The notes below the pieces were generated by a model. The model worked only from the letters and a program-made list of their open reading frames with translations. It searched no databases and was not told where the DNA came from. Positions 3,114 to 50,473 of a DNA stretch of 64,000 bases are shown here, piece by piece; within the stretch, counting starts at the first letter, position 1; each line of letters starts with the position of its first letter. The DNA lies in the NCBI GenBank assembly GCA_027046625.1, contig JALTXX010000016.1, positions 5,512-69,511 on the forward strand, written 5' to 3'. The DNA comes from Candidatus Micrarchaeota archaeon. Its GTDB lineage: Archaea > Iainarchaeota > Iainarchaeia > JAADDC01. The translations under genes and the position numbers were made by a program.

Positions 3114-3144
3114 AGTACTTTTGATGTTTTAAAGGATAAAAACA

Positions 3145-3217
3145 TGCGCCGGCCGGGATTCGAACCCGGGTCGTCGGCGTGGAAGGCCGACGTCCTACCA
3201 GGCTAGACTACCGGCGC
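3145..3217 (-). tRNA. tRNA-Gly(TCC)
   Basis: hand-folded cloverleaf: acceptor GCGCCGG/CCGGCGC, T-loop GGTTCGAATCC, anticodon loop CTTCCAC. Confidence 0.8.
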
Positions 3218-3279
3218 ATGTGGCCCCGGCCAGAGACACCGGTTCATGGGTCTCCGGGCGTCGCAACCGGGGCCTCCCA

Positions 3280-3354
3280 CGGCCCCGAGGGGATTTGAAC
3301 CCCTGACCTTCGGCTCCGCAAGCCGACGCCCTATCCAGGCTGGGCCACGGGGCC
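3280..3354 (-). tRNA. tRNA-Arg(GCG)
   Basis: acceptor GGCCCCG/CGGGGCC, T-loop GGTTCAAATCC, anticodon loop TTGCGGA. Confidence 0.8.
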
Positions 3355-3357
3355 CTA

Positions 3358-3431
3358 AGCCCCGGGCGGGATTCGAACCCGCGACCTCCCGCTTACAAGG
3401 CGGGCGCTCCGCCGGGCTGAGCTACCGGGGC
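3358..3431 (-). tRNA. tRNA-Thr(TGT)
   Basis: acceptor GCCCCGG/CCGGGGC, T-loop GGTTCGAATCC, anticodon loop CTTGTAA; only 3 nt from tRNA-Arg. Confidence 0.8.
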
Positions 3432-3440
3432 ATGTTAGGA

Positions 3441-3515
3441 TGCTCCGGCCGGGATTTGAACCCGGGTCACGGGCTCGAAAGGCCCGCATGCTTGACCGGA
3501 CTACACCACCGGAGC
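3441..3515 (-). tRNA. tRNA-Glu(TTC)
   Basis: acceptor GCTCCGG/CCGGAGC, T-loop GGTTCAAATCC, anticodon loop CTTTCGA. Confidence 0.8.
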
Positions 3516-39808: not shown

Positions 39809-39853
39809 CTCAATATTAGGCTTGGGATGATGTTAAAAGGGTTGTGTAGTGAA

Positions 39854-39928
<75 letters not shown>

Positions 39929-40035
39929 TCCATATGGGGGTTTAGACTCTATCACCCCATGCTGGTGGGACCTTTTGATCCCTATCTACCATATGCTGAA
40001 GGTAAGGTTAAAAAGTAGGCCTCCCAATTTATGAG

Positions 40036-41216: not shown

Positions 41217-42509
41217 ATGAGAGCCATCCTTCTGCTCCTTCTTTTGCCCTTCGCCTTTTCCAAGGTTGGTATATATGCAAAAGATTTTTCCGTAACTTGT
41301 TATAGATATAGCGACGATGTAAGATCTCTAAATCCAGAAACGCCGAATATTTTGGTGTCCTATCTGAGAGATGGAGGATTTGATGTGGAGCTCTTCTACT
41401 CTACGGAGGATATTGGAAAGTATGACGGAATAATAGTACTTGGATGTACATCTATGGATCCAAAGGATGTAGAGAGATTTCTATCCTTTGAAGGAAGGTT
41501 GGTGGTGGATGCTAGGGATGACAATCCTCTTTCTTCTGCGCTAGGTGTAAAGAGGAAGAGTTATCCCCTTGAGGGGACGGATACAAGCTCCTTCAGAGAC
41601 GTATATGTGAACATTACAAATGGGATCCTTCTAAAGCACGTTATAAAGGGAGGCCCGCTTGTAGGGTATGAAAGGATGTATTATGTTGGCAATCCCATAT
41701 TCCTTCCTTCAAGATTTAAAAGCGGGTTCTTGACCCCAACGGGAGAGGATGTGTTAGGAATAGACGATAACGTGGTGGTGACAGGATGTTTTTACTGTTC
41801 AGACCCGCTTCTGCTATATAACTTGGTGGACTGGGTAGAGGACGGGAAGATAGACTTCCCCAGCTTTTACATTGAGAGGGAGATAACCCCCTCCTTGGTG
41901 AGGGTAGGGGGTACCTTTGTGGACATTGTAAGGGTTAGGTCTCCCAAGGAGATGGAAGTGAGGGGAGAATACATATACGGTGAGGGCGGCGGGCAGTTCT
42001 GCAACTTTACACCCATAAATACAGAGTTTTCCGGTCCGGAAATAACAGGAAGAGAGTACGAAGTAGAAGCAAGGTTTATTTACAGGCCGGAAGAGCCCGT
42101 GTACTGCTATCTTCCTCCTGTAGTACTTGATCTTCTATGGAAAGCTTATAAGAGAACCGTAATACTTGATGCTATACCTGTAACAGTATCTTCTACTACT
42201 GTAGCGTTACCAGAAAGACCCCTAGACTGGATATACGTTTTGATTCCTCTAATTCTACTTATACTACTCTCTCCCTTCCTCTATAAACAGCTAAAAATAA
42301 GGAGGCTAAAGAAGCGATGGATTCAGTTAAAGAGGCTTATAGACAAGACAAACCAGCGTTATATGGCAAGGAAGATATCTAAAGAGGTGTATGAAGAGCT
42401 TATAACGGAGTATACGAAGGAGCTTCAGCTTGTTGAAGGAGCGCTCACCGAGCTTGGCGTAGATATAACCACCCTAGAACGATCACACCGCCCACAAGGA
42501 GAACGATAA
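41217..42509 (+). CDS. hypothetical secreted protein with C-terminal TM anchor and basic coiled tail
   Basis: 430 aa; N-terminal signal MRAILLLLLLPFAFS; TM near residue 345. Confidence 0.45.
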   Translation: MRAILLLLLLPFAFSKVGIYAKDFSVTCYRYSDDVRSLNPETPNILVSYLRDGGFDVELFYSTEDIGKYDGIIVLGCTSMDPKDVERFLSFEGRLVVDARDDNPLSSALGVKRKSYPLEGTDTSSFRDVYVNITNGILLKHVIKGGPLVGYERMYYVGNPIFLPSRFKSGFLTPTGEDVLGIDDNVVVTGCFYCSDPLLLYNLVDWVEDGKIDFPSFYIEREITPSLVRVGGTFVDIVRVRSPKEMEVRGEYIYGEGGGQFCNFTPINTEFSGPEITGREYEVEARFIYRPEEPVYCYLPPVVLDLLWKAYKRTVILDAIPVTVSSTTVALPERPLDWIYVLIPLILLILLSPFLYKQLKIRRLKKRWIQLKRLIDKTNQRYMARKISKEVYEELITEYTKELQLVEGALTELGVDITTLERSHRPQGER

Positions 42510-43335
42510 AGTATAGCGGGATACCCTCTTCACTTCCATATACTGTGGTGCTTGATTTTGTAGAACACTCCCCAGATCTTACCTCTACTGTGATCTCCAC
42601 AGGGAAGGATTCCACCCTTGATATTATTTCAAACAGTTTGGAATCCTTGGTGTATCGCACCTCCACGTTGTTACCATTTAGTGTAGCCACAACGTTGGAG
42701 GGGACGACCCTTTTACCATCTAGGAGCACCTCAAAGGTGTGTATTATGTATGTATCTCCTCCTTCCCTTAGCTGCTTGGTGGAAAGGTGGTTGATCTCCA
42801 GATTGCAGGATGAGAGTTTTACTATGGGAGAAGAGAGGGATGGGGAGCCCCTTCTTACCCTATAGCTGAGATAACCTCTCCCGTCCTTTACAGTAACAAA
42901 CCATGCAACGGTAGGATCAAACTCCAATACCATTTTATCCTCCGAGAGTATCTCGTCCGCATCCTCTACCATCTCCTTGGGAAACTCCTCTATCACAAGG
43001 TAATTTCCATCCTCCCCCTCTATAGTAATGGATACGCTTTTTCCATTGATTGTCTTTGACCAGTTATTCCCCTTGATGACATCGTAATCTACTGTTACAA
43101 GCTTGTTATCCAGGGAAGTAAACACAACCCTAAGCTTATCTCCTGCATCAATATCTGCACAACACACATACTTCCCATTTTTGTATTCACAGGTTGCCAG
43201 TGCGGTGCTATCATCTGACATGAAAGTGGCGTAATTCTTTACATTTGGGAGTCTATCTACGCAGATTGTGTTTGCGAATGATGTGGTAGACAGTACGAGC
43301 AGGAACACCAGTGGATAAAGCAATGGACGCCACAT
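42445..43335 (-). CDS. hypothetical secreted protein with C-terminal TM anchor
   Basis: start trimmed to MWRPLLYPLVFLLVLSTTSFA signal peptide (ORF track starts 43440); C-terminal hydrophobic segment. Confidence 0.4.
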   Translation of the reverse strand: MWRPLLYPLVFLLVLSTTSFANTICVDRLPNVKNYATFMSDDSTALATCEYKNGKYVCCADIDAGDKLRVVFTSLDNKLVTVDYDVIKGNNWSKTINGKSVSITIEGEDGNYLVIEEFPKEMVEDADEILSEDKMVLEFDPTVAWFVTVKDGRGYLSYRVRRGSPSLSSPIVKLSSCNLEINHLSTKQLREGGDTYIIHTFEVLLDGKRVVPSNVVATLNGNNVEVRYTKDSKLFEIISRVESFPVEITVEVRSGECSTKSSTTVYGSEEGIPLYFIVLLVGGVIVLGWLYLRQAR

Positions 43336-43627
43336 CTTCTCCAGAAACATATTTGTGCAGGATGATTTTAATGGTTTCCTCAGAATGCTTTGGAGGTCTT
43401 CCCCTCCCCCTCCCGCTCTCCACCACCCTGATGCCCACACTTTCCAAAGCCCTTATTACGGAGGGATCGGATATATGTTTAATACTCTTTGGAACTACTA
43501 TGCGCTTTAAGGAGGGCATGCGAAGCAGTATGTTTGTTACAAGCTTTTTGGAAAGCCGAATGGATATGTAAACACTATCATCGTCCTTTAATTTTTCCAC
43601 ATCACTTATTCTTCTCACTTTTTGCAT
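43253..43627 (-). CDS. small HTH-containing protein (AT-hook-like GRGRGRPPK plus Tc1/resolvase-type HTH)
   Basis: 124 aa; C-terminal SIALSTGVPARTVYHIIRKH helix-turn-helix; last gene of the top6B-top6A string. Confidence 0.4.
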   Translation of the reverse strand: MQKVRRISDVEKLKDDDSVYISIRLSKKLVTNILLRMPSLKRIVVPKSIKHISDPSVIRALESVGIRVVESGRGRGRPPKHSEETIKIILHKYVSGEDVASIALSTGVPARTVYHIIRKHNLRR

Positions 43628-44609
43628 TTTTCAATGCCTCCAAGAACCTTTCAGCTTTGCTCCCCCCTTTACACATATCCTTCAAGAGGGAGTGTGCAAG
43701 ATCCCTTGTGTATAGAGAACGTCCCAATCCCTCAATCTTTTTTAACGTGCTTAGGATACGTTCTCTTTTGCATTCATCATCCCTAATATAGGATTCTATC
43801 TGGTCTACTGATGTGACACCTCTCAAGGGCCTTTTTGGATAGTAGGGAGGGAAGTACGTGAAGTATTTAACAAGAAACCGGGATATTTCCCTAGCTACCC
43901 TATCTGATAGAATATGGTACGCCCTGAACCTCTTGCTCCTAACCTCCTTTAGTACGGCGGGATCTATTTCTCCCTCCTTTGTAAGAAATCCTTCCTCCTC
44001 TAACCTTTGTAAAAGCATCCACATGATTTCTTCGTTTCTATATATGTTGTCAATGCCAAAGGAGAGTACAATGTTTACGTATCTCTGGGCCCTCTCCGAT
44101 AACGTGGGTAGCTTAACCTCTTCAAGGGACTTTGCCAGACCTATATATGTAACTATGAGGTGAGTTGATCTAGGTAGCTTCTTTTTGTGCATAAAATCTG
44201 TAAACACCATGAAAGCGGCACCATTCTTTACAACCTTCATATAGGAGCCATCGTAGGGCAGAAATGGGATGTAATCCGTTAATATGTTATCTTCTAGGGA
44301 GTATAGAGCCAGTTTGTTGGCATGATAAGCTACTGTAGCCCTCTCGAGGGTCCACTTCTTGATATTTATAGAGTATATATATCTTTTCAACGCATTTATA
44401 GCCTCGAAGAGTTCCTCATCTTCCAGTTCTTCCATACCAGGAAGGAGCTTCCTAAGAGAAAGAGCAGGTGTGCGAAAGCCTTGCCTATGCATCTCTGATA
44501 TGAACTCTTTGAGCCTTTTTACCCTTTTTCTTAGCGTGTTTACATCCCTTGTCTCATCATAGGCATCAAGCTCTTCATTTACCTGTGCTACAAGTTCTCC
44601 CACGTCCAC
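43602..44609 (-). CDS. hypothetical protein encoded directly downstream of top6A
   Basis: 335 aa; no recognised motif; 43-nt gap to top6A and 26-nt overlap with the next gene suggest co-transcription. Confidence 0.45.
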   Translation of the reverse strand: MDVGELVAQVNEELDAYDETRDVNTLRKRVKRLKEFISEMHRQGFRTPALSLRKLLPGMEELEDEELFEAINALKRYIYSINIKKWTLERATVAYHANKLALYSLEDNILTDYIPFLPYDGSYMKVVKNGAAFMVFTDFMHKKKLPRSTHLIVTYIGLAKSLEEVKLPTLSERAQRYVNIVLSFGIDNIYRNEEIMWMLLQRLEEEGFLTKEGEIDPAVLKEVRSKRFRAYHILSDRVAREISRFLVKYFTYFPPYYPKRPLRGVTSVDQIESYIRDDECKRERILSTLKKIEGLGRSLYTRDLAHSLLKDMCKGGSKAERFLEALKNAKSEKNK

Positions 44610-44652
44610 ATTACTATGGTACTACGCTGCTAATATAAGCATATCTGAAAAA

Positions 44653-45801
44653 TTATGGCAAAAAGGCCTTGGCCTCCAGCTTGGCAGGCACATAATCCTT
44701 TGATATGAATCTCCAGTGTTTTGAGGCAGCAGCCTCAATTTCCATCTTGAACTGCTCTTTCTCTAGTAGTTCAAACTCTCTTTGCCATTCCTTCTTCTTA
44801 AACCATGGATAATTTTTCAGCTCGTTAACCCTCTTTATATCCCACTCCTTTAGTTTTATCTTCACTGTGGGCGGAAACTTGAACTCGTGGTAATCTGAGA
44901 TGGTTAGACCCAGGAACCTGGCTGCAGGGGTTGCGAGTTGGGGAGAAAGGTAAGATAGGTTTATGGAGCCCTGTTTGTATACGGAATATATGTACCACCC
45001 AGCAGGATCTGCATCTGTGAGTACATACACAGGCAACTTAAATTCGTAGTGCAGTCTGTGAACTAACCTTCTTGTGGCCCTGTCTGCCTGGCCTCCGCCT
45101 GTTATAATGATGGCATTGTACTCATCCCAGAACCTATCCTCATGGAATCTTACCCAAGACGCAAACTTCTCAATAACTAGCACAAACTCTGCCTCTACCT
45201 TTTTTATGTGGACCCTTTCTGGCTCTACAATGGGAGGTATGGCCCAGCCCCCCATACCTAACATGGTTCCATCCACCTCTGTGACCCTATGTTTTCCATC
45301 GGGGGACGGGACCCTCTCTTCTATCTCTATGGGGCCTGCTAGATGCCCCTTCCCTCCCTGGGACATGATGTGAAACTCCTCTCTTATGACGTTTAGCATG
45401 GTTTCAAGGTCTTCTATAGCCTTGTCACTTTCCCTCTGCTCATCTACGAGGTTCTCCCTTGTGCCTGGAATAGTAAACTTTACTGTGTAGTAGAGATCTC
45501 TCAAGCTTGATGTAATACCCTCCTCTACAAGTTCCTTTATTCTGCTTGCCACCCATACAGTTTGGAGGAAGCGCTTTGCATGTGCTATATTCAAGAAGTA
45601 TCTTCTAGAAAGCTTTTCTCCCATAAGGATTACACCCTTTTCCTCGTCCCATATAACATTTGAGAGTGTTCTTGTTGGTAGCTCTATGTAAAGATCCTTC
45701 TCTTTCTCTGCTTTTTCTAGTATAGACTCTGCCCACTCCTTTAATCGCTTCAAAACCTCCTTATCCTTCCTTCTAATCTCCTCAATAATCTTCTCGTTCA
45801 T
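44653..45801 (-). CDS. top6A: DNA topoisomerase VI subunit A (Spo11-like)
   Basis: 382 aa; winged-helix/5Y-CAP then Toprim YVLTDADPAGWYI. Confidence 0.9.
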   Translation of the reverse strand: MNEKIIEEIRRKDKEVLKRLKEWAESILEKAEKEKDLYIELPTRTLSNVIWDEEKGVILMGEKLSRRYFLNIAHAKRFLQTVWVASRIKELVEEGITSSLRDLYYTVKFTIPGTRENLVDEQRESDKAIEDLETMLNVIREEFHIMSQGGKGHLAGPIEIEERVPSPDGKHRVTEVDGTMLGMGGWAIPPIVEPERVHIKKVEAEFVLVIEKFASWVRFHEDRFWDEYNAIIITGGGQADRATRRLVHRLHYEFKLPVYVLTDADPAGWYIYSVYKQGSINLSYLSPQLATPAARFLGLTISDYHEFKFPPTVKIKLKEWDIKRVNELKNYPWFKKKEWQREFELLEKEQFKMEIEAAASKHWRFISKDYVPAKLEAKAFLP

Positions 45802-47477
45802 GCACTCTCAACCTCCAGTTTCTTCATAAGCTCCTCTAGTCTCTTGTATCTCTCTTCTAGGAGGGATTTTAGAGTACTTTCTACCACTTTTTCATCCTTT
45901 CCTGTTAGGGTAGCCAGACCTTTGGATAAAAATGGTAGATAATGTTCTAAGATCTTCTTCTTTTGCATAAGCTCATTGATGCTGTGTACTTTTGATGTAT
46001 ACTCCTTTAGCTTTCTTCCAGCCTCCATAAGGGCCTGCCTTATCTCGTTGTACACCTCCGGTACATCTGCTATGGCCTGTTTTCCTGCTGTGGTATAAGG
46101 TATGTGGGTTGATGAGATGTTTACCATGATAACTACAGGGGCATTGAAGACATCCACGCCGTATCTGTTCCAATCAATACTTTTTACCGCTTCTGTAATG
46201 GCACACCCCCCGCTATCAAATAGGAGCGGCACCCTGTTGGCAAACCTCATAAGTTCAAAGTTTTCAATCTTTCCTCCAACTGCTATTCCAACCTCTACCT
46301 GGAAGGGGATACCTCCGTAGTATACTTTTGGCTTTCTCTCTACCACAGACACAAACGATGGTTTTAGGTTTGCCTTTAGGGAAGTTTTGATGCGTTCCTT
46401 CCCAATGGGTATGAGTACATCTGTGCTAGGACCTCTTATTTTTACCTCTTTTAGAATATTAAGTAGATTCTTAGCCTTCTCTTCATCTATCTCCTTACCT
46501 AAAACCTTTTTGAGCATTTCAATACCTTCTTTTTCATCAAAATCTCTCTTCTTTTCTGCCATTGTTCTTAGCAGCCTAAAGAGCATTACGATCCTTTCTG
46601 CCTCCTCCCATGTTAGTTCTTGAGGAGGTTTGTTTAGCTCTCTAGGGAGAATATGCAACATAGATATGATAGCTTTGCTACCTATGCCGTGAAGATGAGA
46701 GGTGATCATGCGAGCTACTGTTTTGCTCTTTGCTATCCTGCTAAGGGAGAAAATGTCATCTGTTGTGATACCAAATGGATGAGGCTTTGCCTCTATACCT
46801 ATCTTTACAGGTTCGAAGGTACTTCTCTCAAAGGTGGTAATCTTTCCGTCGGGCTCTGTAAATCTTATAGTGACATGGGGGTTGGCCAAAGCTGTCCTTC
46901 TGAGATACTCATATACGGAGTATTTTCCTCTGTTGTATTCCACCTCCTTTAGCTCTACGATTACCTCTGTACCTCTGAAATCCCCTGGATAGTGCCTTTT
47001 AGACTTTACATCAGGCTCGTTCTTTGTTACATCTACCATTACCTCCATTTCCCATACCGTTCCATCCCCTGTAGAGGTGATAATCTTCACTGGCTTACCT
47101 GTGGTAATCTGGGAAAATAGTGTTACACCTGCAGCCCCGATACCTTGTTGACCCCTAGTCTGTATCATTCTATGGAACTTTGTGCCGGCGAGAAGTTTTC
47201 CAAACACCCTTGGAGCTATGTGGGGAGGAATACCAGGGCCATTATCCTTTACCGTTAGCCTATAATGCTCATCTCCCAACCTTTCCAGCGAAACAGATAT
47301 ATCCGGCAGTATACCAACCTCTTCACATGCATCCAATGAGTTGGTTACAAGTTCATGAACTGCGGTAGTAAGTGATCGTACCTTTCCTGAGTAGCCTAGC
47401 ATGTGTTTGTTTTTCTTGAAAAACTCTGCCACAGAGTGCTCCTTAAACTCTTTGAATATGTCTGTGCCCTCAGGCAT
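45798..47477 (-). CDS. top6B: DNA topoisomerase VI subunit B (GHKL ATPase)
   Basis: 559 aa; Bergerat fold motifs ELVTNSLDACEE, DNGPGIP, GxxGxG; 4-nt overlap with top6A. Confidence 0.9.
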   Translation of the reverse strand: MPEGTDIFKEFKEHSVAEFFKKNKHMLGYSGKVRSLTTAVHELVTNSLDACEEVGILPDISVSLERLGDEHYRLTVKDNGPGIPPHIAPRVFGKLLAGTKFHRMIQTRGQQGIGAAGVTLFSQITTGKPVKIITSTGDGTVWEMEVMVDVTKNEPDVKSKRHYPGDFRGTEVIVELKEVEYNRGKYSVYEYLRRTALANPHVTIRFTEPDGKITTFERSTFEPVKIGIEAKPHPFGITTDDIFSLSRIAKSKTVARMITSHLHGIGSKAIISMLHILPRELNKPPQELTWEEAERIVMLFRLLRTMAEKKRDFDEKEGIEMLKKVLGKEIDEEKAKNLLNILKEVKIRGPSTDVLIPIGKERIKTSLKANLKPSFVSVVERKPKVYYGGIPFQVEVGIAVGGKIENFELMRFANRVPLLFDSGGCAITEAVKSIDWNRYGVDVFNAPVVIMVNISSTHIPYTTAGKQAIADVPEVYNEIRQALMEAGRKLKEYTSKVHSINELMQKKKILEHYLPFLSKGLATLTGKDEKVVESTLKSLLEERYKRLEELMKKLEVESA

Positions 47478-47507: not shown

Positions 47508-48119
47508 TTAAATATCCCCTCTCTCTTCCTTTTCCCATATGCCAAACTTGCTATATATTTTTTCCATGGTTTCTCTCCTCTTTTCATTCTCCAACTCCCT
47601 GAATACCACCGTATGAGGACTCCCATCAACTATCAGCCTATTTATAGCTCTCTTTGCAAGCTCTATAGCTTCAAAGGTGCCTATGATAGATACTGTGTTA
47701 CCATATATCCTTATGTTTGTATCTGTAAGCTCCTCTAACCTCTTTCTTGCCGAGCCCTTGCTACCTATGAGACGGGCTCTCTGCCGGGGGATGGCATGCC
47801 TCCCCAGCACCTCCTTCAGGTTGATAATCTCAAGGTATACATCGTCCCTGAAGAGGTTGAGGGCCGTGTCTGGGTCAAAGCCTCTGCCTATTGCCTTCAC
47901 AACCCTAACAGCGTTCAGAAAATTTATAGGATCGGTTCCTTTCCCGCCCTTTACTGTTACTTCCCCACTCTTGGAATCTATCCGTATTCTTACATCTGCA
48001 AGATTCTCTATTCTTTTCTTAACCTTCCCTTTTTTACCTATTAATACTCCTATTCTTTCCCTTGGAATTCTCACAGATTCTTCCATTCCCTCTTCTCCAT
48101 ACATGAAGTCTTCCTCCAC
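47508..48119 (-). CDS. double KH-domain RNA-binding protein (Dim2/Pno1-like)
   Basis: 203 aa; two KH GxxG motifs (IGKKGKV, IGSKGSA). Confidence 0.7.
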   Translation of the reverse strand: MEEDFMYGEEGMEESVRIPRERIGVLIGKKGKVKKRIENLADVRIRIDSKSGEVTVKGGKGTDPINFLNAVRVVKAIGRGFDPDTALNLFRDDVYLEIINLKEVLGRHAIPRQRARLIGSKGSARKRLEELTDTNIRIYGNTVSIIGTFEAIELAKRAINRLIVDGSPHTVVFRELENEKRRETMEKIYSKFGIWEKEERGDI

Positions 48120-48133
48120 AAACTATCCAATGT

Positions 48134-50473
48134 ATGCATCACTTTTTTAACCCACCCATCCCTATTACATTCATGTCCTATTCCATTATTTCACCCCTCC
48201 TCATTATCCTCATCGTAGTAGCCTCCTCCCTCTTCCTCTACAACACCGTCATCTCCTCTCTCCAACCCATCCAGTCCACTCCTTCCTTCGTTCCACTAAT
48301 CATCGAAGAATACAAACAGGAGGGCAACCTTCTCACCCTCTACATCAGAAACCCCTCAAACACCTCAGCCTCCCTCCCCTACATCCTCGTCAAAACAGAA
48401 GAAGGGATAACAAAGATTGACCTCAACGCCACCATCCCCCCAAACTCCTCCCAGCCCATCACGGTAGAGCTCCCCTCCACTACATCCCAAGAGATAGAGG
48501 TATCCCTTGGAGGAAGCACCTCCTACCAGGTCCAGATAGAGCCTACAACTTCACTGTCAGCTCTATTCTGCCCTATCCTACCTCCAGACTGCACAGACCC
48601 CAACTCTCCCTGTGCAGGCACCGGCTGTTTAGCCTCGTATCCAAAGATCTTAGGAACTTATACATTTCCTACTAATGTTGCGCACGATATGGCTCTTCAT
48701 CCAGAAAGAAACCTGGCCTTCGTAGTCAACGGATATTCAGGCCTCCTCACCATCAACTACACAAATCCTTCCTCCCCAACATTAGAAGGAAACTATGACA
48801 CCCCAGGCTATGCCCAGAGTGTAGCCCTTGATACCCAGAAGAACTTGGCCTTTGTAGCAGATAGATCATCAGGCCTCCTCATAATAAATTACGCTATTCC
48901 ATCTTCTCTTACCTTAGAAGGTAATTACAATACTTCTGGCGACGCTCTAGGAGTAGCCCTCCTCCCAGAAAAGAACCTCGCCTTCGTAGCCGACGGACTT
49001 TCAGGCCTCCTCATCATAAATTATACCAACCCCGCTAACCCTGTATTAGAAGGCAACTACAACACTCCAGGAACAGCTATCTCTGTGGCTCTCGATCCCG
49101 AAAAAAACCTTGCCTTTGTAATCGATGGCAATTTACAAATTGTTGACTACACCAACCCATCATCTCCAACCCTGGTAGGAAGCTATGCCACCCCAGATAA
49201 TGCATTTTCGGCTGCCTTACTTCCCGGGATGAATATAGCTTTTGTGGTGGTTGGTTACTCCGGTATTCTTATTATCGATTACACAGACCCCACAAACCCC
49301 ACTTTAATTTCTGAGCATAACACTTTAAGCCCAGCGATTGATGTGGTTCTATCTCCAGAGAGTAACACCGCGTTTGTAGGCACCTACGACTCTGTCATTG
49401 TTATAGATTATACAGATCCGGCAAATCCTGTAGTAGAGAAGAATTTCTTTATTAGTATAAATTACTCCATAGCCTTTTCTTCAGACAGGAACCTTTTATT
49501 TACGGGCTCATTCCATCAGATTAACATCATTGATTACTCGCAGCCTGACACTGCCCCATCGCTCCTTACTAACTACCCTATAAGCATAATAACAAGGGGT
49601 ACGGCAGTAGGAGTCATCCTCCTATCAGAGAAAAACCTTGCCTTTGTAGCCGACAGGGACTCAAACTATGTCCTCATCATAAACTACACCGATCCTACAA
49701 CCCCTATTTTAGAAGGCAACTACAACACTCCAGGAACAGCTATCTCTGTGGCTCTCGATCCCGAAAAAAACCTCGCCTTTGTAATCGATGGCAATTTACA
49801 AATTGTTGACTACACCAACCCATCATCTCCAACCCTGGTAGGAAGCTATGCCACCCCAGGATATGCCCAGAGTGTAGCCCTTGATACCCAGAAGAACTTG
49901 GCCTTCGTGGCGGATAGTACCGCAGGTCTTCTAATAATCAGCTATACAGATCCTACCAGCCCTACTCTGGTAGGAAGCTATAGCGTACCATACTATGCTG
50001 CTGGTGTTGCTCTCCTCCCAGAAAAGAACTTGGCCTTCGTAGCCGACGGACCTTCAGGCCTCCTCATCATAAATTATACCAACCCCGCTAACCCTGTATT
50101 AGAAGGCAACTACAACACTCCAGGATATGCTGAAGACGTAGCCATAGATATAGAAAGAAATCTGGCCTTTGTAGCAGACAATGAAGCAGGTGTTCAAATA
50201 ATAGACTATACTATCTCCTCCTCCCCAGTAATAGCAGGATCCTACGACACCCCGGGCTACGTATTCAATGTAGCCCTCCTCCCAGAAAAGAACTTGGCCT
50301 TCGTAGCCGACGGACCTTCAGGCCTCCTCATCATCAACTACACTAACCCATCATCTCCAACCCTAGTAGCAAGATCGTATCCAGCGTCAACAGATGTAGC
50401 ATTGGATGGAAACCTGTTGTTTGTTGCTGGAGGAAACCTTTACGTTCTAAACATCTGCAACTGTTTGACTTAA
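48134..50473 (+). CDS. LVIVD-repeat beta-propeller surface protein with N-terminal signal anchor
   Basis: 779 aa; about 14 repeats of NLAFVAD-GxSGLLIINYTNPSSPTLxGxYxTPGxAxxVAL (LVIVD-type); start may be the internal Met at 48173. Confidence 0.7.
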   Translation: MHHFFNPPIPITFMSYSIISPLLIILIVVASSLFLYNTVISSLQPIQSTPSFVPLIIEEYKQEGNLLTLYIRNPSNTSASLPYILVKTEEGITKIDLNATIPPNSSQPITVELPSTTSQEIEVSLGGSTSYQVQIEPTTSLSALFCPILPPDCTDPNSPCAGTGCLASYPKILGTYTFPTNVAHDMALHPERNLAFVVNGYSGLLTINYTNPSSPTLEGNYDTPGYAQSVALDTQKNLAFVADRSSGLLIINYAIPSSLTLEGNYNTSGDALGVALLPEKNLAFVADGLSGLLIINYTNPANPVLEGNYNTPGTAISVALDPEKNLAFVIDGNLQIVDYTNPSSPTLVGSYATPDNAFSAALLPGMNIAFVVVGYSGILIIDYTDPTNPTLISEHNTLSPAIDVVLSPESNTAFVGTYDSVIVIDYTDPANPVVEKNFFISINYSIAFSSDRNLLFTGSFHQINIIDYSQPDTAPSLLTNYPISIITRGTAVGVILLSEKNLAFVADRDSNYVLIINYTDPTTPILEGNYNTPGTAISVALDPEKNLAFVIDGNLQIVDYTNPSSPTLVGSYATPGYAQSVALDTQKNLAFVADSTAGLLIISYTDPTSPTLVGSYSVPYYAAGVALLPEKNLAFVADGPSGLLIINYTNPANPVLEGNYNTPGYAEDVAIDIERNLAFVADNEAGVQIIDYTISSSPVIAGSYDTPGYVFNVALLPEKNLAFVADGPSGLLIINYTNPSSPTLVARSYPASTDVALDGNLLFVAGGNLYVLNICNCLT

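Follow-up and report, generated by a model that had tools for sequence, protein, structure and literature searches.

The 64,000-nucleotide (nt) stretch of a Candidatus Micrarchaeota archaeon genome analyzed here (contig JALTXX010000016.1), hereafter the window, carries two co-oriented genes directly downstream of top6B-top6A, the genes for the two subunits of DNA topoisomerase VI (Topo VI). Their products, of 335 and 124 amino acids (aa), belong to existing uncharacterised Pfam families, DUF530 and DUF1699 respectively, and the window DUF530 protein is a new, unusually short member of its family. Comparison with other genomes and metagenomes established that DUF530 and DUF1699 constitute a near-obligate two-gene module across archaea, one in which the smaller protein probably binds DNA and which in several lineages is packed against top6A. 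The identity of both open reading frames (ORFs) as genes and as family members is close to certain. Homologues of both are found in many lineages, so neither is a chance ORF, and both genes are present in the public gene call for the same contig (WANZ01000061.1, GCA_015521515.1). All locus coordinates given below are positions in the window, and the gene run lies on its minus strand.

In order to establish how strictly the two families are associated, the gene context of six DUF530 relatives was examined together with window-clade loci among 80 top6A-centred genome loci and with 77 DUF1699-centred metagenome loci (individual loci are numbered with the prefix L). The genome scan used a Top6A alignment, and the metagenome scan used a narrower DUF1699 alignment. 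DUF530 was located immediately upstream of DUF1699, in the same orientation, in every locus with enough flanking sequence, the exceptions being L067 and L157. In most lineages the two genes overlap by up to 59 nt or stand no more than a few nt apart. The pairing was present in Thermococcus, Micrarchaeia, the window clade, and Methanobrevibacter-type genomes, where the upstream neighbour is a methionyl-tRNA synthetase. In an 87%-identical relative of the window pair (L003:2-965) a premature stop interrupts the DUF530 homologue, whose C-terminal portion is found in a different frame and ends in the 26-nt overlap known from the window; this points to a frameshift behind the apparent truncation, representing either an assembly error or a pseudogene. 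The two proteins are reasonably likely to act as a complex.

The 335-aa protein matched Pfam DUF530 (PF04409) at 30.7 bits (E = 1.6e-7, gathering cut-off 27), with the match confined to the N-terminal 95 residues (residues 13-107; profile positions 26-122 of 521). A preliminary description of the locus, made from the sequence alone, had credited this protein with no recognisable motif; that statement was wrong, given the above-cut-off match and a C-terminal R-F-x-E-x-L-K motif common to the family, which reads RFLEALK in the window protein (residues 321-327; 43629-43649). An exhaustive phmmer search of 1.8 billion representatives matched 22 proteins of 211-472 aa, the query included. The query and all but one of its 21 non-self phmmer relatives were aligned; 17 of the 21 sequences in this alignment are Pfam DUF530, and several, from Micrarchaeota, bear the NCBI name 'DUF530 family protein'. 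A word-indexed protein search with the same query gave no match beyond itself, and almost nothing aligned when the window protein was compared directly with the Thermococcus member by BLASTP. The alignment is conserved in its N-terminal half, with invariant residues M40, R90, P118, and G121, and contains no conserved catalytic-looking residue pattern. The RFLEALK codons stop two bases short of the start codon (ATG) of the 124-aa gene, which leaves just a non-conserved basic tail to be encoded by the 26-nt overlap and makes both frames credible. The N-terminal helical region, the C-terminal motif, and the downstream partner gene are common to the window protein and the rest of the family, but usual members are 415-525 aa in length, whereas the window protein lacks both the strand-rich insert in the centre and the greater part of the C-terminal region. 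An AlphaFold2 (AF2) model built on the family alignment was all-helical, with a predicted local distance difference test score (pLDDT) of 80 and a predicted template modelling score of 0.72; residues 1-256 were modelled with confidence and residues 257-323 with low confidence.

Precomputed tables record the DUF1699_N family (PF28505) for exactly this 124-aa protein, while the older full-length model (PF08004, DUF1699) scored 21.8 bits, below its cut-off of 33.4. A word-indexed protein search returned only the query itself and one 87% relative. Alignment of nine DUF1699 members from eight lineages, the window protein together with the genes that come after DUF530 at eight other loci, revealed three conserved modules, namely an N-terminal domain of approximately 65 residues, a G-R-P-x-K/R arm (kept in eight of the nine), and a C-terminal helix-turn-helix (HTH) with the signature G-I-P-x-R-T-V-Y-Y-I-L. 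The window protein shares all three modules with the family, as well as the position directly after DUF530. Its arm, GRGRGRPPK, scored 18.0 bits against AT_hook (PF02178, cut-off 17.4) at residues 72-83, the core RGRP being residues 75-78. An AF2 model based on a two-sequence alignment was weak (pLDDT 61) and reliable for the HTH only, which superposed on the DNA-binding domains of GcrA, Tc3, IS21, Tn3 resolvase, Myb, and Cbp2. The DUF1699_N domain is predicted, in a low-confidence part of the model (pLDDT ~55 in the region), to adopt a beta-alpha-beta-alpha-beta fold. The protein stayed below the 23.8-bit cut-off of the resolvase-type HTH_7 family (PF02796). Its initial portrayal as an AT-hook-like GRGRGRPPK followed by a Tc1/resolvase-type HTH is borne out by the above-cut-off AT_hook match, the HTH directly after it, and the superposition on Tc3 and Tn3 resolvase.

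Scans of the 124-aa protein against Pfam, PHROGs, and PADLOC revealed no catalytic transposase or recombinase domain. No PADLOC family passed the default E-value of 0.001, the one weak match being mad1 (E = 0.026) on 20 HTH residues, and PHROGs gave HTH-level matches only; defence-system, phage, and transposon readings were rejected on these results. Within the family, the Methanobrevibacter-type DUF1699 proteins (L004:9584-10048; L139-L143, L150-L155, L170) exceed the others in length, with 153-158 aa. The alignment includes one of them, that of L004, which has two copies of the HTH and W-G-A-S-R in place of the G-R-P arm. The DUF530 partners of the group belong to a long form, in most cases of 521-525 aa, and top6 does not lie near the pair.

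Several characterised systems resemble the small protein in part. Hin, gamma-delta, and Tn3 resolvases and the Tc3 and Sleeping Beauty transposases carry a small three-helix HTH after a G-R-P-type arm, as does the window protein; the matches are weak but consistent. In Hin this arm sits in the minor groove. Unlike the resolvases and transposases, the window protein has no catalytic domain and no terminal repeats, and it occupies a conserved chromosomal housekeeping context. In plants, Topo VI has small DNA-binding accessory proteins, BIN4/MID and RHL1, that interact with it, and BIN4 is reported to have an AT-hook; the analogy with the pair is functional only, and no sequence relationship is expected. 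Among known structures, PDB 2LVS was matched across the basic linker and HTH, with E = 0.0044 for the single sequence and 2.6e-9 for the family profile, the GRGRGRPPK arm aligning with the basic linker. This structure is that of Cbp2 of Hyperthermus butylicus, a homeodomain-like protein that binds CRISPR repeats, with a basic linker that is protected upon DNA binding (PMC3597662). The crenarchaeal Cbp2 and Cbp1 contain two or three tandem HTHs joined by basic linkers (2LVS, PMC3597662), whereas the window protein has a single HTH, preceded by an alpha/beta domain unrelated to either. Furthermore, the Cbp proteins have neither DUF1699_N nor a DUF530 partner and bind CRISPR repeats. They are the closest characterised HTH relatives and transcription-related DNA-repeat binders (PMC3597662; PMC10883916).

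To determine how often the module accompanies Topo VI genes, DUF1699 proteins were grouped at 60% identity or above. The 21 resulting clusters comprised nine with top6A immediately upstream, eight clearly unlinked, and four with too little flank (nine of 17 informative clusters linked). The proposal that both homologues might be syntenic with top6 in other archaea therefore holds for nine clusters and five Top6A clades but is not universal. Altogether, 47 loci carry top6A together with the pair or one member, and the Top6A ORF was long enough for clustering in 42. The linked Top6A sequences of these 42 loci form five clades with mutual identities of 29-53%, and the order top6B-top6A-DUF530-DUF1699 recurs in all five, which include Thermococcus, Micrarchaeia, Iainarchaeota-type metagenome-assembled genomes (MAGs), and the DPANN clade of the window; three DPANN groups are represented in the linked set. 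Clade 1 (21 clustered loci) is Thermococcus, with EF-2 and DUF530 exactly matching WP_297458412.1 and WP_297458516.1. Clade 3 consists of L099, L123, and L127, clade 4 of Micrarchaeia, and clade 5 of a 'Diapherotrites' MAG. The DUF530 genes of the four clades other than that of the window pass the Pfam cut-off independently, with 74-253 bits, and NCBI names are in agreement with these assignments ('DUF530 family protein' for the Thermococcus orthologue, 'DUF1699 family protein' for that of L067).

Among the metagenome loci, 32 have top6A directly upstream of DUF530, and top6B is present as well wherever the contig extends far enough, except in L127. At this locus (L127:2675-6395) top6B is not adjacent, yet top6A-(198 aa)-DUF530-DUF1699 is retained. 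In L067 (2234-3824) DUF1699 follows top6A after 88 nt with no DUF530 between them, and the contig ends 130 nt further on. The stop of top6A and the start of DUF530 overlap by 4 nt in 26 of 26 measurable Thermococcus junctions, and DUF1699 follows after 4-6 nt. Within the 80 top6A genome loci, the pair or the DUF1699 gene was found only in the six nearest to the window (L014-L019) and in L067. L007, L099, and L123 retain a longer string, eIF1A-RIO1-KH-top6B-top6A-DUF530-DUF1699, of which Thermococcus (L113) keeps the part beginning with RIO1; the KH gene precedes top6B in L007, L012, L113, L123, and L163. An amino-acid kinase gene adjoins the module in two unrelated lineages (L009:1330-1977, Pfam AA_kinase; L127:1400-2257, by N-terminal sequence only), possibly by coincidence.

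The junction between top6A and DUF530 differs among lineages. In the window, a T5 run (44648-44652) directly after the top6A stop opens the spacer, and a TATA-like TTATATTA (44631-44638) lies 21 nt upstream of the GTG at 44609. Across the window clade the spacer measures 43-56 nt, with a conserved TATA-like box 22-33 nt ahead of the start codon. Six of eight members have an A/T run of 7 nt or more at -34 to -19, with near-misses in the other two (none of 5000 shuffles reached six), and an oligo-T of at least five precedes the box in five of eight. An archaeal TATA box centred ~26 nt before the start codon implies a leaderless transcript. The spacer thus probably combines a putative terminator with a promoter, such that in the window the pair would have its own promoter; a scan for sigma-70 promoters and bacterial terminators is uninformative for an archaeon. 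The four-gene transcript suggested by the preliminary description is doubtful for the window organism because of the T5 run and the conserved TATA-like box (found in six of eight clade members), both of which are sequence signals.

Published data for T. kodakarensis describe a different arrangement. TK0799 is top6B and TK0798 is top6A (PMC8643681 supplement), followed by TK0797 (695417-696661, 414 aa), which overlaps TK0798 by 4 nt, and by TK0796 (694993-695412, 139 aa) after a 4-nt gap (PMC4247193 supplement). From position and size rather than sequence, we infer that TK0797 is the DUF530 gene and TK0796 the DUF1699 gene; the order, gene lengths, and spacing are the same as for DUF530/DUF1699 of Thermococcus sp. 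TK0797 overlaps top6A, whereas DUF530 of the window is set off by a promoter-like spacer. A primary transcription start site (TSS) was mapped at 701407 (TK0802), with the next minus-strand primary TSS at 694935 (TK0795), and between these two genes the only sense TSS, at 697536 inside top6A, is classed as 'internal' (PMC4247193). Raw reads per gene length in the same data are similar for TK0796, TK0797, and TK0798, a similarity that is weak evidence because the libraries are 5'-enriched. These observations would all fit a Thermococcus transcript shared by top6 and the pair. Antisense (+) TSSs were also recorded just past the 3' end of TK0796 (694940 and 694987) and near the TK0797/TK0798 junction (696621) (PMC4247193 supplement).

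The explanation we favour is that the 124-aa protein would bind DNA by placing its recognition helix in the major groove, the GRP arm lying in the adjacent minor groove, as in Hin, Tc3, and Cbp2. Because the gene pairing is strict, the DUF1699_N domain may be expected to dock on the DUF530 protein, and the pair would act as one DNA-bound complex. The module would act on chromosomal DNA and share a process with Topo VI, e.g. by marking or organising the DNA at sites of decatenation or relaxation by that enzyme, and would be a helper that is dispensable and confined to certain lineages, not a core subunit. It belongs to the ancient archaeal string running from eIF1A to DUF1699, and in the window the pair would be transcribed as a leaderless mRNA from its own spacer promoter, perhaps with read-through from top6. 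Taken as a whole, with the Topo VI tie included, this chain falls only slightly short of an even chance, and the functional tie of the pair to Topo VI is put forward tentatively. The more specific proposal, that DUF530 and DUF1699 physically recruit or regulate Topo VI as a DNA-targeting module in Thermococcales and several DPANN lineages, is rather unlikely. A role as accessory factor of Topo VI is suggested by gene order only.

A number of observations weigh against such a tie. The pair is unlinked from top6 in at least eight lineages (Methanobrevibacter-type L004, L139-L144, L146, L150-L155, L160, and L170; Micrarchaeia L010, L009, and L013), and neither gene lies within 10 kb of top6 in roughly 50 loci of Aenigmatarchaeota, Nanoarchaeota, and Undinarchaeota and roughly 20 of bacteria. 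Identity inside the window clade is 71-75% for Top6A but only 30-35% for DUF530, unlike what a tightly co-evolving subunit would show. The DUF530 structure offers no functional clue, since comparison of the model with solved structures gave no significant match and a likeness to generic helical bundles only. Furthermore, the window-clade spacer has the look of a terminator plus promoter, published work describes Topo VI as active in the form of an A2B2 heterotetramer (PMC11894792), and inherited gene order alone can hold unrelated genes together, as the conserved string also carries eIF1A, RIO1, and KH, none of them regarded as Topo VI subunits.

The pair may instead be a stand-alone DNA-binding or regulatory system with no tie to Topo VI, its place after top6A reflecting inherited order from the ancient string, and this alternative is a serious one even if it stops short of probable. 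It is in keeping with the movement of the pair as a unit without top6 in at least eight lineages, the translation-related genes in the string, and the TATA-like box that the window clade has between top6A and DUF530, in most cases together with an oligo-T, as well as with the transcription-related nature of the nearest characterised HTH relative, Cbp2/Cbp1 (PMC3597662; PMC10883916). A stand-alone system does not readily explain why adjacency to top6A persists across clades that are 29-53% identical, or why it outlasts the loss of top6B (L127) and of DUF530 from the junction (L067); moreover, the 4-nt top6A/DUF530 overlap in every measurable Thermococcus junction is typical of co-translated partners. 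That both proteins are stoichiometric subunits of an archaeal Topo VI holoenzyme is improbable. The operon-like packing with top6BA in Thermococcus and the comparable TK0796-TK0798 read counts are as such a role would predict, but the A2B2 description of the active enzyme (PMC11894792), the absence of the genes around most sampled top6 loci (including all bacterial ones), their unlinked position in Methanobacteriales-type genomes, and the far faster evolution of DUF530 than of Top6A all argue otherwise. Still less probable is that the pair serves translation or ribosome biogenesis alongside the eIF1A, RIO1, and KH genes upstream of it; conservation of the string, whole in L007, L099, and L123 and starting at RIO1 in L113, speaks for such a role, but the small protein has a DNA-type HTH and minor-groove arm, not an RNA-binding fold, and the pair is always on the top6A side of the string, remaining with top6A without top6B in L127. 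Finally, the possibility that a Tc1-type transposase or serine recombinase has degenerated to leave the 124-aa ORF as its HTH remnant, with the 335-aa ORF a lineage-specific orphan, merits almost no credence and is already refuted, since the N-terminal domain, GRP arm, and HTH are conserved family-wide from DPANN to Thermococcus and Methanobrevibacter-type genomes, the gene is always paired with DUF530 and single-copy in the window, and no catalytic domain or mobile-element signal is present.

The features of the locus are listed in Table 1. The layout originally read from the sequence, with a 4-nt overlap of top6B and top6A, a 43-nt gap, the 335-aa ORF, a 26-nt overlap, and the 124-aa ORF, holds. 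Topoisomerase VI assignments are unambiguous by the scores given. The nearest Top6A relatives among species-representative genomes (67-71% identity) belong to MAGs labelled Candidatus Iainarchaeum, Micrarchaeota, and 'Methanobacteriota SZUA-1452', and by this measure the window organism is a DPANN-type archaeon.

Table 1. Features of the top6-DUF530-DUF1699 locus, in window coordinates and in order of transcription.
Feature	Position	Strand	Evidence and remarks
KH-domain protein (arCOG04150 type)	47508..48119	-	Pfam KH_1, KH_KRR1_2nd; NCBIfam TIGR03665, 188 bits; first gene of co-oriented run
top6B, DNA topoisomerase VI subunit B	45798..47477	-	TIGR01052, 644 bits; Pfam HATPase_c, Topo-VIb_trans
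top6A, DNA topoisomerase VI subunit A	44653..45801	-	NF003333, 477 bits; Pfam TP6A_N, TOP6A-Spo11_Toprim; 4-nt overlap with top6B
top6A-DUF530 spacer, 43 nt	44610..44652	-	T5 run and TATA-like box; sequence read directly
335-aa DUF530-family protein, short and divergent	43602..44609	-	GTG start; Pfam PF04409
124-aa DUF1699-family protein	43253..43627	-	ATG start; 26-nt overlap with DUF530 gene; PF28505
DUF1699_N domain, residues 7-71 of 124-aa protein	43415..43609	-	Pfam match region
GRGRGRPPK basic arm, residues 72-80, AT-hook-like	43388..43414	-	AT_hook, 18.0 bits
Three-helix HTH, residues 83-119, resolvase/Tc3/Myb/Cbp2 type	43271..43381	-	
287-aa protein, signal peptide and C-terminal membrane helix	42445..43308	-	GTG start; third co-oriented gene after top6A

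The overlap of the downstream ORF with the 124-aa gene depends on the start chosen, being 188 nt for the maximal 331-aa ORF, 83 nt from ATG 43335, and 56 nt from GTG 43308. Homologues in L005 and L007, like the public gene call, favour the last of these (287 aa), which yields a short signal peptide and keeps the C-terminal membrane helix. The maximal ORF was rejected as the gene, the public call and homologue starts corresponding to GTG 43308. An overlap of more than 80 nt, noted earlier together with a call to verify start sites, is obtained from the maximal ORF and from ATG 43335; the best-supported start gives the shorter value. The 287-aa protein matched no Pfam family and was seen only in the window, L005, and L007, all of the window clade. 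ORFs after the pair in L123 and L163 start differently (by inspection, not alignment), and Thermococcus L113 has a folE2-type GTP cyclohydrolase in that place; the 287-aa gene is therefore not part of the conserved module. Its 3' end overlaps a convergent 430-aa gene (41217-42509, +) by 65 nt, and both proteins, neither with a Pfam family, are conserved in the clade at the same positions.

Elsewhere in the window, a 779-aa LVIVD-repeat protein (48134-50473, +; PF08309, 172 bits, six stretches) is divergent from the KH-top6 run, four tRNA genes (Gly, Arg, Thr, Glu) lie within 372 nt (3144-3515, -), and tRNA-Val (39854-39928, -) is overlapped by a spurious 63-aa ORF (39827-40018). Among the other top6 loci sampled, about 20 bacterial MAGs (L050, L061-L065, L068-L091), labelled Planctomycetes/Pirellulales, Anaeromyxobacter, Acidobacteria, and 'delta proteobacterium', contain top6B-top6A with a Top6A 43-46% identical to the DPANN protein and no DUF530 or DUF1699 nearby. 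Two Aenigmatarchaeota top6B ORFs (L057:1354-6189, 1612 aa; L036:6652-10017, 1122 aa) carry inteins (Intein_splicing, LAGLIDADG_3, Hom_end), that of L057 apparently with two, one in the ATPase region and one in the transducer.

A literature search found no mention of DUF530, DUF1699, their Pfam accessions, TK0797, TK0796, PF1577, or PF1576, with look-alike strings in unrelated papers only, and the words 'accessory' and 'partner' do not occur in a 2024 review of archaeal DNA topology. In the literature searched, the occurrence of DUF530 and DUF1699 as one module, the Cbp2/Hin-like DNA-binding domain on the small partner, and the packing of the module against top6A in Thermococcales and several DPANN lineages all appear to be unreported. 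Archaeal Topo VI has been treated as a self-sufficient A2B2 enzyme. The module adjoins top6A in about half of the sampled lineages, as distant as Thermococcales and DPANN, which makes it a testable candidate partner, and the question of helpers for archaeal Topo VI becomes concrete with TK0797 and TK0796 in the genetically tractable T. kodakarensis. If the link is inherited gene order only, two DUF families are still paired, one of them predicted to be DNA-binding. If the pair does recruit or regulate Topo VI, a prokaryotic type IIB topoisomerase would for the first time have accessory factors, and these would correspond in function to plant BIN4/RHL1.

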